IMG/VR virus record: IMGVR_UViG_2703718859_000020
Direction: 5' to 3' (one strand)
Origin: a virus
Taxonomy: Duplodnaviria; Heunggongvirae; Uroviricota; Caudoviricetes
DNA length: 6,425 nt
In this document: piece by piece, positions 2,531-6,012 of the stretch
How positions within the stretch are numbered: the first letter of the stretch is position 1
Layout: the number at the start of each line of letters is the position of its first letter
Made by a program: the position numbers and the translations under genes
The notes under the pieces: model-generated
What the model was told of the DNA's origin: nothing
The model's database searches: none
What the model saw: only the letters and a program-made list of their open reading frames with translations

Positions 2531-2623
2531 GGTGTATTTCAGTATACGCAAAAAAAAAGATAAAAAAAGTCTTGCGGTGTATTTCACCTGAATGTAGATT
2601 TAAAAATGAAGGTGAAATACACC
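2531..2623 (-). promoter_or_regulatory. Cassette B promoter with three copies of operator motif GGTGTATTTCACC
   Basis: Minus-strand -10 TATACT (plus 2541-2546) about 31 nt upstream of the start codon; the -35 is poor (T-rich). Motif copies at 2531-2542, 2576-2588 and, inverted, 2611-2623; the last two form a perfect 13-bp inverted repeat with a 22-bp spacer. Confidence 0.5.
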
Positions 2624-2634
2624 CAAAACAACAA

Positions 2635-2678
2635 CGCCCCGCAGTGATGGGAACACATACGGGGCGTCTAACCAAACC
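2635..2678 (-). repeat. Conserved GC hairpin (CGCCCCG-N18-CGGGGCG) followed by TCTAACCAA, upstream of the cassette B promoter
   Basis: Read directly; a homologous element lies upstream of the cassette A promoter (3385-3427). On the minus strand the hairpin is followed by a T-rich tract (TTGTTGTTTT). Confidence 0.4.
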
Positions 2679-2747
2679 ATTAATTGAGGTAACGATTATG
2701 GCTATAAAAGAGCATAGCTTACTCTTTATACACACACAAACGCCCCG

Positions 2748-2767
2748 GAAACGGAATAATCCGTTTC
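2748..2767 (-). terminator. Weak hairpin after cassette A gene 2 (GAAACGGA-ATAA-TCCGTTTC)
   Basis: 8-bp stem with a 4-nt loop, 20 nt downstream of the stop at 2787. Only a weak T-rich tract follows on the minus strand. Confidence 0.3.
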
Positions 2768-2786
2768 ATAGTTCGGTTTTGTGCAC

Positions 2787-3014
2787 TCATCCTGGCGGTC
2801 GGTTTTTGCCGGATTTAAGCCGCCGTGGGTATTTATCGACAAAATCTTCAAGGGCAAATTTTTCTGGTGGCACTAAGCGCGGCGCTGGTGGTGGTATTTT
2901 TGTTCTGGTTAGTTCTTCCTCAACTCTGGCGCAGGCTTCTGACTGCCTTTGCCGGATGATTTCATCATCTTGCGTTTGCGTGTCTTGTATTGGTGATAGT
3001 GTGTTGTTGGTCAT
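2787..3014 (-). CDS. Small protein of unrecognised family, 75 aa (cassette A, gene 2)
   Basis: ATG at 3012-3014, 57 nt after the RHH stop; paralog of the 2070-2273 ORF (same motif and position). Weak SD (AGGG). Confidence 0.45.
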   Translation of the reverse strand: MTNNTLSPIQDTQTQDDEIIRQRQSEACARVEEELTRTKIPPPAPRLVPPEKFALEDFVDKYPRRLKSGKNRPPG

Positions 3015-3071
3015 GATACTGCCCTGTAAAGCAATGCGCCGTAGTACCTCACACCACGGCGCTGATAGTGA

Positions 3072-3251
3072 TTATTCTGATTCTTTGGCCTTGCGACGCT
3101 GGCGGTATTCAACTTCCCGCTTTAATGCAGCTGTAACAAACTGCCCTGTACTTTCGCCGGGCATTTTTACCGCCTCAACATTGTTCATAACTTCATGTGG
3201 AACCCTTGCCGCAACTGTTTGTGATTTTGCGTTTACTGCTTTTGTCGCCAT
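3072..3251 (-). CDS. Ribbon-helix-helix DNA-binding protein, 59 aa (cassette A)
   Basis: ATG at 3249-3251 with SD GAGGGG 8 nt upstream. MATKAVNAKSQTVAARVPHEVMNNVEAVKMPGESTGQFVTAALKREVEYRQRRKAKESE is 36/59 identical to the cassette B RHH protein and has the same length and RHH pattern. Confidence 0.7.
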   Translation of the reverse strand: MATKAVNAKSQTVAARVPHEVMNNVEAVKMPGESTGQFVTAALKREVEYRQRRKAKESE

Positions 3252-3280
3252 GTTGAGCACCCCTCATAAAAAACAAATGC

Positions 3281-3353
3281 AGTATGCAGGAAAAAAAACA
3301 AGTGTTCAACACTTGACGTGTTTAACACCTCGATTTAAATTGGTGTTCAACAC
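3281..3353 (-). promoter_or_regulatory. Cassette A sigma70-like promoter overlapped by three palindromic operators GTGTT-N-AACAC
   Basis: Minus-strand -35 TTGAAC (plus 3304-3309), 17-bp spacer, -10 CATACT (plus 3281-3286), about 30 nt upstream of the start codon. 11-bp palindromes at 3302-3312, 3318-3328 and 3343-3353; the first overlaps the -35. Confidence 0.5.
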
Positions 3354-3384
3354 CTTATTTAGGCAAGGTGTAGAAACGACGAAA

Positions 3385-3427
3385 CCCCGCACTGTAGGAG
3401 CAGTAACGGGGCTTCTAACCAACAACG
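3385..3427 (-). repeat. Conserved GC hairpin (CCCCG-N17-CGGGG) followed by TCTAACCAA, upstream of the cassette A promoter
   Basis: Homolog of the 2635-2678 element, in the same position relative to the promoter. Confidence 0.4.
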
Positions 3428-3634
3428 TAAACGAGGAGCCGTTATGGTTGCCGTAAATCATATACCACACCTTGTACACACACAAACGGCCTTTGTGTGG
3501 CGTTTTCTGGCACTGAGTGCCGGAGAATCTCAAATAATCCACGTAACCGCCTGGACGGAACGCGAAGCACGTAACCGTTGCCCGTCAGGTTGTGTTGCTG
3601 TATTCGCCGCCCGTATTCGCCAGGGGGTAGGCTT

Positions 3635-3868
3635 ATGAGCCAGGAAATCACACTACAACAGGCAGCAGAACGCGCCCACCAAATCGAAGTTATTTGCGCA
3701 CTGGCAGAGGATTACCCTGGCATGATGACCGACAGCGAATCAGGGGCAATCATCGGCTTACTTAAACGCCTTAGCGGTGAGGTCTGCGTATTCCTGAGCG
3801 ATGAACAGGAAAGAAGAACGCTTATTTCTAACGAAAAAAAATGCGGAGGGGTACACCATGTGCAATAA
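3635..3868 (+). CDS. Small helical protein, 77 aa, first gene of the replication-side operon
   Basis: ATG at 3635 with SD AGGGGG 7 nt upstream. The track ORF 3578-3868 has an earlier start with no SD. Its stop overlaps the next ORF's start by 11 nt. Confidence 0.5.
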   Translation: MSQEITLQQAAERAHQIEVICALAEDYPGMMTDSESGAIIGLLKRLSGEVCVFLSDEQERRTLISNEKKCGGVHHVQ

Positions 3869-4318: not shown

Positions 4319-4618
4319 ATGAAAAAGAAAATTTCTGGCTTAACTGCTAGTGGCAACACTCACCCTAAATTTACGCGCGGCGATATTTACCGCGACCAGT
4401 ACGGCGGCACGGTAACGATTAAAGGTGTAGAAGAGCGACGCATTACCTACCGCCGTGAAGGCTACGAATATGACTGCGTGATGCCTGTTTATCAGTTCCG
4501 GCGTGATTTTTCTCTGGTACAGACCGCGCCGCATAACGTGCCCACCAGCAGGGAGAAAGCACGCGCCAATATTCAGAAGATGAAAAACATGATTAACGGA
4601 TTCAGGGGCAAGAAATGA
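4319..4618 (+). CDS. Hypothetical protein, 99 aa
   Basis: ORF whose stop overlaps the rep start (ATGA at 4615-4618), suggesting translational coupling. Weak SD. No family recognised. Confidence 0.45.
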   Translation: MKKKISGLTASGNTHPKFTRGDIYRDQYGGTVTIKGVEERRITYRREGYEYDCVMPVYQFRRDFSLVQTAPHNVPTSREKARANIQKMKNMINGFRGKK

Positions 4619-6012
4619 AAAGCGCACCGAACTTAAAAAAACAGCCTTACGACAAGATGACCGAAGTCATCATTTTTGCGGGTAGTGATGCGTGGGCACA
4701 TGCGAAACAGTGGCAGGAACAGGACGGGCGACTGGCTGGCGATAATGTGCCTCCCATTGTGCTGGCTGATGATCAACTGGATGAACTGGCAGACCTGAGA
4801 ATCATCGACGAGGGGCGCTATTGTGTCCGGCTGTACAAGGCAGGCCACATCAGGCCATCAAATATTAATGCCATTGCGCACAAGCTGGCGGCGGCGGGCG
4901 TAACTGATGCGAATTATTACCCCGAAGGGATACACAGCCAGAAGCGGGAGAACTGGCGCGAATATCTGGAACGGGAGCGGGGGAAAAAGCCAGGGGAAGA
5001 ACACCACCAGCGAAAAACCACGCTACCGATGAGCGTTGGATCTGCCGGATACGACACGCAATTAGATTACGTGGTAAAGGGGATTATTCCGGCATCGTCG
5101 CTTTGCAGCATATACGGGGCGAGCGGTTCCTATAAATCATTCCTTGCGGGTTCGTGGGCGTGTCACGTTTCCACGGGCCGCCAGTGGGGAGGCCGCAGGG
5201 TGGCGCATGGCGCTGTTCTCTATGTGGTTGGTGAAGGCGGTATCGGCGTTCCGCGTCGTGTAAAAGCCTGGGAGGTTGTGCACGGTGAGCAGGTGAAAAA
5301 TCTGTATCTGGTAAACCGTCCCATCTTTCCGGCGGTCCCGCTTGATGTTGATGAAATGGTTATCGCTGCCCGTCAGGTGGAGCGGGAAACGGGTAAACCT
5401 GTACGCATGATTATTCTGGATACGCTGGCGCGTTGCTTTGGTGGGAATGATGAAAATGATTCCCGTGATATGGGGGCGTTTATCCGTGGTTGTGACGAAC
5501 TGAAACGACGCACAGGGGCCACGGTGCTGGTGGTTCACCATTCCGGCAAGGATGAGACGAAAGGCGCGCGCGGTTCCAGTGCATTTCGTGCATCACTGGA
5601 TGCTGAATACCGGATACGCAGGGAGGACGCAGGAAGCGAAGCGCTGGTTATCTCATGCACCAAAATGAAGGACGCGGAGGAACTCAAAGAGGCTGCCTAT
5701 GATTTGCGGGTGGTGGAGCTTTTTACCGACGCTGACGGGGAGTTAATCACGTCGCTGGTGGTGGTGGATAAGCCGCGCCCTCCCGTTGAACTGGAGCGCA
5801 TCGAGGAGGCAGGGAACAAGACGGAAAACCATACCGCGCTATGGGGGTGCATCCGTTCACGCACACAGAACGGCGACAAGTGCACGATCCCGCTGTTACG
5901 TGATGACATGAAAAAACTGGGGTATGAAATGAAAAACTTCCGGCGCTGGCTGTACAAGCTGGAAAAAGATGGGGTTATTCGTATCGATGGGGATGATGTA
6001 GCGCCGCTATAA
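4615..6012 (+). CDS. Replication-associated RecA-fold P-loop ATPase (RepA / AAA_25-like helicase or initiator), 465 aa
   Basis: SD CAGGGG 6 nt upstream. Walker A-like SIYGASGSYKSF (residues ~165-176, deviant with Tyr where the second Gly is expected), Walker B VRMIILDTLAR (~263-273), and VLVVHHSGKD typical of RepA/DnaB-like proteins. N-terminal ~150-aa domain and a basic C-terminal ~70-aa region consistent with a DNA-binding winged helix. Confidence 0.8.
   Translation: MKSAPNLKKQPYDKMTEVIIFAGSDAWAHAKQWQEQDGRLAGDNVPPIVLADDQLDELADLRIIDEGRYCVRLYKAGHIRPSNINAIAHKLAAAGVTDANYYPEGIHSQKRENWREYLERERGKKPGEEHHQRKTTLPMSVGSAGYDTQLDYVVKGIIPASSLCSIYGASGSYKSFLAGSWACHVSTGRQWGGRRVAHGAVLYVVGEGGIGVPRRVKAWEVVHGEQVKNLYLVNRPIFPAVPLDVDEMVIAARQVERETGKPVRMIILDTLARCFGGNDENDSRDMGAFIRGCDELKRRTGATVLVVHHSGKDETKGARGSSAFRASLDAEYRIRREDAGSEALVISCTKMKDAEELKEAAYDLRVVELFTDADGELITSLVVVDKPRPPVELERIEEAGNKTENHTALWGCIRSRTQNGDKCTIPLLRDDMKKLGYEMKNFRRWLYKLEKDGVIRIDGDDVAPL

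Follow-up and report, generated by a model that had tools for sequence, protein, structure and literature searches.

The 6,425-nucleotide (nt) stretch of DNA analyzed here (IMG/VR record IMGVR_UViG_2703718859_000020, Caudoviricetes; "the window" below always means this whole stretch) is the left end of a capsid-forming phage satellite of the phage-inducible chromosomal island (PICI) type. Between alpA and a small gene resembling a cell division inhibitor (Icd-like), it carries two diverged tandem units, roughly 2040–2742 and 2780–3488, which lie ~745 bp apart. Their best stretch is 82% identical, and the similarity stops directly after a 14-nt block. Both units contain the same element, composed of a GC hairpin, a box (TCTAACCA) and the block (CACACAAACG). 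The element sits in the plus-strand leader between the promoter and the Shine–Dalgarno (SD) sequence and ATG in the right unit, and near a truncated start in the left unit. We propose, with a probability of about 0.7, that hairpin, box and block are the terminator, first stem and promoter of an unannotated antisense RNA of ~80 nt that is encoded on the minus strand, has its closest known relative in RepX of the IncQ plasmids, and lies over the Icd-like ribosome-binding site (RBS).

The Icd-like gene (3444–3638, plus strand) matches NF033153, is annotated as Icd-like in relatives, and is the predicted target of this RNA. The NF033153 match covers residues 17–60 only, and the first 16 codons lie outside the conserved domain. 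In the left unit, the Icd-like gene is truncated, with only its first 15 codons remaining from the ATG at 2698. A promoter scan placed the plus-strand promoter of the Icd-like operon, TTGACG-17-TAAATT, at 3313–3341, embedded in GTGTT(C/T)AACAC palindromes. A transcript from this promoter would hold the full target of the RNA predicted in the right unit.

A preliminary description of the locus had reported two hairpins, each followed by the box, and both are present as described, CGCCCCG-N18-CGGGGCG-TCTAACCAA at 2635–2675 and CCCCG-N17-CGGGG-C-TTCTAACCAA at 3385–3422. The combined pattern CGGGGNNTCTAACCAA has two occurrences in place of the 0.04 expected by chance. Similarly, the shared 14-nt block TACACACACAAACG is found twice against an expectation of 0.00, although its copies span 2729–2742 and 3475–3488, each one position away from where they had been placed. 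The suggestion that the elements belong to a duplicated unit also holds, with the block as the right-hand edge of that unit. Between the two copies, the stem arms and the box are kept and the loop is different. What the preliminary description missed is that box and block would be stem-loop 1 and the promoter of a single minus-strand transcription unit, antisense to the Icd-like translation start.

For comparison, ~240 loci around Icd-like genes were gathered from IMG/VR, together with E. coli and Shigella genomes. Because a scan of genome contigs yielded just two loci, the sequence diversity used below was drawn from IMG/VR and is mostly from Escherichia. Three classes of leader precede the Icd-like genes. 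Two of them contain C4 antisense RNA, one with IsrK upstream, and the third is the class found in the window, in which a GC hairpin is followed by an invariant (G/T)TCTAACCA. In this third class, the sequence upstream of the hairpin is hypervariable, with different operator types, while the hairpin loops differ in sequence as well as length and the stems change with compensation. According to the sequence between box and ATG, these leaders fall into four subclasses (i–iv). A query of 3365–3490, which includes the 5′ end of the Icd-like gene, found matches in 1276 of 5426 complete E. coli genomes, O157:H7 strains among them, and at least 80% of the query was present in 586 of those genomes. SS52 is one of the O157:H7 strains with the element. 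The matched region is annotated solely as protein-coding or is unannotated.

A fold belonging to the minus strand

For each of the 58 unique hairpin variants, the minus-strand RNA has the more stable fold (mean difference −7.3 kcal/mol), and every non-Watson–Crick position of the plus strand is an A·C or C·A that becomes G·U on the minus strand. Across 75 unique RNA bodies, the count for the minus-strand folds is 308 G·U pairs with zero A·C 1×1 mismatches, whereas 70 A·C mismatches occur in the plus-strand folds. In a MAFFT alignment of 33 sequences, 90.8% of the pairs of this hairpin were paired on the minus strand, a level reached by none of 500 shuffles, compared with 75% on the plus strand. 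The conserved fold belongs to the minus strand. Because neither a protein-binding palindrome in duplex DNA nor an RNA element of the plus strand explains the G·U asymmetry, we regard the minus strand as the functional one.

These results bear on a reading at the DNA level, in which the hairpin would be an inverted repeat bound by AlpA, by the YlcI-like regulator encoded next to it or by the integrase, or a recombination scar left by swaps of immunity modules. Conservation does start exactly at the hairpin, beside hypervariable operator DNA, and one hairpin type occurs with several upstream modules, indicating that recombination takes place nearby. However, a protein site would keep the sequence of its arms, and here the arms change with compensation and the loop varies in length. 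Moreover, duplex DNA cannot explain a G·U pattern that is specific to one strand, and we consider the DNA-level reading highly improbable.

On the minus strand, the GC stems fold at −22 to −31 kcal/mol and lead directly into a U-rich tract, the arrangement that defines an intrinsic (Rho-independent) terminator. The T-rich minus-strand stretch reported in the preliminary description is a general feature, as the first 10 nt past the GC arm contain 5–8 U in 58 of 58 variants (mean 6.6, versus 2.5 on the plus strand), within a region that is otherwise hypervariable. In the relative L008, a rule-based scan recognized the hairpin as a terminator of the minus strand, in which 15 pairs enclose a loop of 7 and GCTTTTTTAA forms the tail. 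The G·U asymmetry, the U-rich tail and this call agree with the terminator originally suggested for the minus strand, and, judged from sequence, the minus-strand hairpin looks like an intrinsic terminator.

The box takes part in a second stem-loop on the same strand. The RNA predicted in the right unit (RNA A, ~78 nt, 3372–3450, minus strand) would form two stem-loops with a folding energy of −30.6 kcal/mol. Stem-loop 1 (SL1) spans 3417–3449, and stem-loop 2 (SL2), which is the right GC hairpin, spans 3381–3415 and is followed by the U-rich tail at 3372–3380. Likewise, the RNA predicted in the left unit (RNA B, ~82 nt, 2622–2704, minus strand, −33.5 kcal/mol) comprises SL1 at 2669–2704, SL2 at 2633–2668, which is the left GC hairpin, and a tail at 2622–2632. 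RNA A is complementary to the SD (3433–3438) and ATG (3444–3446) of the Icd-like gene, and RNA B is antisense to the SD (2686–2689) and ATG (2698–2700) of the truncated Icd-like start. In SL1 of RNA A, the stem is formed by AACCA (complementary to ATGGTT) and UGGUU (complementary to the box), and the loop contains the anti-SD sequence CUCCUC. The box TCTAACCA (3414–3421) thereby supplies SL1 with its 3′ strand and also comprises a 1-nt spacer and the opening 2 nt of SL2.

SL1 is found in all four leader subclasses despite the wholly different 20–30 nt between box and ATG. The complement of the region around the start codon (AACCA, AGCCA or AGCUACC) pairs with that of the box (UGGUU(A) or GGUGGUU(A)), and an anti-SD (CUCC or CCUC) lies in or beside the loop. 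Each of the 29 unique SL1 variants has the better fold on the minus strand (mean difference −6.2 kcal/mol), where plus-strand mismatches are again G·U pairs. The invariance of the box can be explained by its SL1 partner, which is fixed by the start codon. Pairing between box and start codon on the mRNA itself was also considered and rejected; it is possible but needs A·C mismatches in subclasses ii and iv, for which the minus strand gives G·U.

A covariance model (R1) built from 21 minus-strand sequences of the element found 41 matches (E ≤0.01) in a search of 40 sources, all of them opposite the Icd-like strand, as follows from the construction of the model. Within the window, R1 matched 2620–2704 with 95.5 bits and 3368–3450 with 81.9 bits, both on the minus strand. 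In a model-guided alignment of 39 distinct sequences (A5), 94.7% of the cells were paired and five pairs had changed on both sides; none of 500 shuffles reached its score, and slid controls showed pairing of just 37–45%. A model-guided alignment leans toward its model, and the alignment-free strand results are free of that bias.

The predicted antisense promoter and its transcript

Promoter-like hexamers precede both predicted RNAs on the minus strand. In the right unit, the −35-like TTGTGT (3480–3485) lies inside the block and the −10-like TATGAT (3457–3462) falls in Icd-like codons 5–7. In the left unit, TTGTGT (2734–2739) is likewise inside the block, with TATGCT at 2711–2716. The −10 hexamer fits TAT[G/A]NT in 86 of 86 unique variants (TATGAT in 67, TATGCT in 17, and TATAAT and TATAGT in one each). 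Positions −12T, −11A, −10T and −7T are invariant, while −9 and −8 vary and so do the encoded residues (N/Q/E, H/Y and I/T/S). This pattern of conserved and variable positions is the known information profile of −10 elements. Position −11A does not vary even though changes at this third codon position would be synonymous, and in two variants a change at the first position of the same codon turns His into Tyr and creates an improved hexamer, TATAAT or TATAGT. The distance from the −10 to the start codon is fixed for each leader type, at 10 nt in subclasses i–iii and 4 nt in subclass iv, and SL1 starts 7–8 nt after the −10 in every subclass. TTGTGT is placed exactly 17 nt from the −10 in 48 of the 86 variants. 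A TGn extended −10 is present in 35 of the 36 variants of subclass iv, which do not have that −35.

In the mechanism that we propose, transcription would start from this promoter, buried in Icd-like codons 5–15, where 17 nt separate the −35 TTGTGT in the shared block from the −10 TATGAT or TATGCT, with the first nucleotide ~5–6 nt inside the open reading frame (ORF). The RNA would fold SL1 from the complements of the start-codon region and the box (UGGUU), exposing the anti-SD in the loop or its flank. A 1-nt spacer, the GC hairpin as SL2 and the U-rich tail would follow, and transcription would end before the operator/promoter region. Across its leader, SD and AUG, the Icd-like mRNA would be fully complementary to the resulting ~80-nt RNA, which could block Icd-like translation. 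By analogy with RepX and with c4-icd-ant of P1, the loss of translation would be expected to lower expression of the downstream replication/packaging operon, so that the satellite is kept quiet against leaky transcription. The face-to-face promoters, ~100 bp apart, may add transcriptional interference. The left cassette would produce a second RNA, with a different SL1/SL2 type, against the truncated target; it may be a relic or may provide immunity in trans.

The G·U asymmetry and the U-rich tail would also be accounted for if the hairpin were a minus-strand terminator and nothing else, shielding the operator, promoter, repressor gene or neighboring unit from stray antisense read-through, with no dedicated small RNA (sRNA). 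The window does contain tandem units, and the preliminary description had suggested that the hairpins insulate them from each other. However, a terminator by itself leaves unexplained the second conserved minus-strand stem-loop made from the box, as well as the invariant −10 at a fixed distance and the agreement with the RepX plan described below. Insulation between tandem units as the main role finds no support in the relatives, since 195 of 217 element-bearing related IMG/VR loci have a single copy. In addition, the right copy has no minus-strand gene upstream of it, and the minus-strand operon of the right unit has a terminator-like hairpin of its own at 2749–2768. Overall, a terminator without an antisense RNA appears unlikely.

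Two further observations concern the same region. The hairpin was considered as a leader or attenuator of the YlcI-like gene, and this was rejected, as that gene has its own promoter-like site by the palindromes (read by eye). The block also forms the 5′ arm of a plus-strand hairpin, CACACAAACGGCCTTTGTGTG then GCGTTTTCTGG, at 3479–3510 in Icd-like codons 12–22. The scan reported this hairpin as terminator-like in the window and in relatives, and it could be a translation-sensitive attenuator that couples transcription of the operon to Icd-like translation.

Likeness to RepX, C4 and other regulatory RNAs

RepX is an RNA of the IncQ plasmids R1162/RSF1010 and is represented in Rfam by RF00043, "R1162-like plasmid antisense RNA". 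An experimentally established antisense RNA of 75 nt, it overlies the repA-repC RBS and start codon, consists of two stem-loops with a GUUA spacer and lacks a 5′ extension (PMC8136791). FinO binds RepX, which represses copy number (PMC8136791, citing Kim & Meyer 1986). The RNA predicted here would share this build, as it would measure ~75 nt, carry its two stem-loops on either side of a short spacer, end in a 3′ tail and lack a 5′ extension. It would likewise be cis-antisense to the leading gene of a replication operon, covering its RBS and start codon, and its promoter would be in the first codons of the target. The likeness extends to the junction (...UGGUUAG...), the GC-rich SL2 with a short tail, and the 5′ end AGCCAU, which is the complement of ATGGCT. 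Both host elements also encode RepA-family helicases, which are ~29% identical. On the other hand, the host element is a phage satellite in the chromosome rather than a plasmid, and the direct target is the Icd-like ORF rather than the repA-repC mRNA, the RepA helicase being encoded 1.2 kb further down the operon. The satellite element also differs in adjoining a divergent YlcI-like regulator with its operators and in occurring in tandem cassettes.

We located IncQ2 plasmids through their RepA helicase, at the identity given above. In these plasmids, the stretch upstream of repA comprises a long GC hairpin, CTAACCA, an SD and ATGGCT. The opposite strand of the IncQ2 plasmid L247 contains SL1, a single A, SL2 and a tail (−42.8 versus −35.1 kcal/mol), with a −10 (CATAAT) 6 nt before AGCCAU. 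On three of three IncQ2 plasmids, the top match of R1 is full length, on the minus strand and exactly at the RepX site, with E values of 4e-4, 1.6e-3 and 0.018 (from a rough calibration on 10.8 kb searched; two of the plasmids are close relatives). In the reverse direction, where Rfam yielded no significant match to the element, RF00043 was the best of the weak ones for the left copy; it aligned end to end with this copy at 18.1 bits (E 0.46; the gathering threshold of 55 bits was not reached) and gave 12.1 bits with subclass iv in L151. The RF00043 model is narrow, as a genuine IncQ2 plasmid obtains only 32 bits. The reciprocal covariance-model matches are thus weak yet position-specific, and the sequence comparisons suggest that the element is probably a distant relative of RepX by common ancestry. 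Its score under the Rfam threshold, together with the differences in host element and direct target, led us not to place it in RF00043. As a separate observation, RF00043 matches L247:1692–1766 on the repA-sense strand although RepX is described as antisense to repA, which suggests that the Rfam model has the orientation of the target strand.

FinP of F-like plasmids, sar of phage P22 and SymR of E. coli are 68–80-nt cis-antisense RNAs that overlie the site where translation of a regulator or toxic gene begins. With its two stem-loops, FinP is shaped like RepX (PMC8136791). The element differs from all three in its target and shows no sequence or model similarity to them at E up to 10. An Rfam scan of the whole window (E up to 1) and of both copies alone (171–191 nt, E up to 10) returned no match to C4, IsrK, FinP, sar or SymR. 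As positive controls, C4 (RF01695) was detected with 72–78 bits in L004, L055, L085, L093 and L002, and IsrK (RF01394) with 62–80 bits. A full-text literature search for the sequence of the element returned nothing relevant.

The C4 RNA of P1/P7 and the CI RNA of P4 (RF01695) resemble the predicted RNA in controlling an icd or icd-like gene at its translation start, and in sister elements C4 occupies the same position. However, C4 is on the icd strand, is cut from the leader and has short loops that covary with the RBS, whereas the RNA predicted here is on the opposite strand, is fully complementary to its target and has no C4 match. The position of the element in the 5′ leader, downstream of a plus-strand promoter, and the C4 and IsrK RNAs that precede Icd-like genes on that strand in relatives would suit an element of the Icd-like mRNA itself. 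It could be a diverged C4/CI-type immunity RNA, a nut-like boxB+boxA, an RNase P minihelix ending in CCA or a stabilizing 5′ hairpin. In this respect, the box shows what we take to be a loose resemblance to boxA, together with a CCA end. Nevertheless, each non-Watson–Crick position is an A·C mismatch on the plus strand, and neither copy matched C4, CI or IsrK at E up to 10 on 171–191 nt, whereas relatives reach 72–80 bits. The hairpin loop also fails to covary with the downstream RBS, unlike C4 loops, the same loop being found with different RBS types. The RNase P minihelix and the nut-like boxB+boxA were dropped for the strand asymmetry, and the chance that any plus-strand leader element is responsible seems slim.

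Several observations in the relatives concern C4 itself. In L085, L093 and L004, IsrK and then C4 precede the Icd-like gene (e.g. L085:1261–1446), and in L085 two hairpin+box cassettes, both of which include a truncated Icd-like start, lie upstream of these RNAs. The C4/IsrK module and the element described here appear to be functionally interchangeable. ORFs annotated as "ash family protein" (PF10554; P0048, P0049 and P0108) read through the C4 gene (C4 at L085:1359–1446, region L085:1359–1500), and the PF10554 family may in part be the translation of an RNA gene. The loop of the right hairpin, CACTGTAGGAGC (3390–3401), has 11 nt (ACTGTAGGAGC) in common with ACTGTAGGAGCC, the RBS-region target of C4-controlled Icd-like genes (L094, L108 and L057). 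We considered the loop as a mimic of a C4 target and rejected this possibility; the right loop equals one C4 target type, but loop and C4 types are uncoupled within one element.

Taken together, the analysis yields a minus-strand two-stem-loop fold, promoter grammar at the right distance, terminator-like features, complementarity to leader, SD and AUG, and the same plan at a proven antisense locus. Some results weigh against an antisense RNA of the RepX type. The RNA is a prediction from sequence. The −35 TTGTGT agrees with the consensus at only three of six positions, and the promoter scan did not call the antisense promoter. The start site predicted at the 7th nt past the −10 is a pyrimidine (C or U), and a purine start requires the 6th or 8th. 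The window's own two hairpins were not called by the rule-based terminator scan, and their U-tracts are interrupted (UUUCGUCGUUUC in the right copy), which makes the efficiency of termination uncertain. Furthermore, the right copy has no RF00043 match at E up to 10, and the similarity of the element to RF00043 is far under gathering. The related sequences are not independent, and their counts therefore overstate the number of evolutionary events. Finally, a published list of sRNAs from Hfq crosslinking and analysis of cDNA (Hfq-CRAC) in O157 Sakai has no entry labeled for this island type, which weighs little with Sakai carriage unconfirmed. FinO- and ProQ-type antisense RNAs need not bind Hfq. 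A published sRNA of enterohemorrhagic E. coli, EcOnc33 (Sakai 1557089–1557136, minus strand, ~71 nt), was rejected as a candidate, as it sits in the late region of the lambdoid prophage Sp6.

Satellite context and neighboring features

The window encodes a P4-type integrase (1–1230), AlpA (1605–1793, PF05930) and a RepA-family helicase (4615–6012, AAA_25), as well as several small ORFs. An E. coli locus that is 95% identical (L001) has the same gene order and continues with genes for the major capsid protein, prohead protease, portal, head–tail connector, HNH and small terminase. This layout is the one reported for capsid-forming PICIs (10.1101/2022.09.08.507074).

Each tandem unit has two ORFs on the minus strand, one for a YlcI/YnfO-family small protein (NF041551) and one for a small hypothetical protein. 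The YlcI/YnfO-family gene is at 2331–2510 in the left unit and at 3072–3251 in the right unit, where the assignment also follows the annotation in L001. The right-unit protein is probably a regulator that binds palindromes. The left unit contains three copies of the palindrome GGTGTATTTCACC (2530–2541, 2576–2588 and 2611–2623), and the right unit three copies of GTGTT(C/T)AACAC (3301–3311, 3319–3329 and 3343–3353). In both units, the unit's own palindrome set flanks divergent promoters, as expected for two repressor specificities. Between the units, 20 nt past the stop of the minus-strand ORF 2787–3014, lies the hairpin GAAACGGAATAATCCGTTTC (2749–2768), probably the terminator of the right unit's minus-strand operon and the true junction of the two units.

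In this setting, a broader and more tentative interpretation can be outlined, which we hold to be possible but doubtful as a whole. PICI and capsid-forming PICI satellites may have adopted a RepX-type countertranscript as a post-transcriptional gatekeeper of the Icd-like, replication and packaging operon, interchangeable with C4/IsrK. Combined with the YlcI-like regulator and the corresponding operators, it would make up an immunity cassette that can be swapped, and tandem cassettes could offer several specificities against competitors. FinO/ProQ-type chaperones of co-resident plasmids could then tune induction. Induction of Gram-negative PICIs has so far been described via AlpA alone, and a conserved antisense RNA that covers the opening gene of the main operon would contribute a further layer of control. 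Such an RNA would connect the regulation of satellites with the copy-control RNAs of plasmids, and it would account for the nucleotide-level conservation of the 5′ codons of these Icd-like genes. It would also constitute a predicted RNA family that genome annotation and Rfam currently miss.

Two minor features were noted to the left of the tandem units. Approximately 40 nt past the alpA stop, the adjacent inverted repeat CCGATACCGGGA/TCTCGGTATCGG (1834–1857) is complementary at 11 of 12 positions, with no T-run after it. Between the integrase gene and alpA, 1381–1462 on the plus strand gave a weak Rfam match to BSnc120 (27 bits, E 0.0045, far under gathering), which reflects an AT-rich, terminator-like hairpin.

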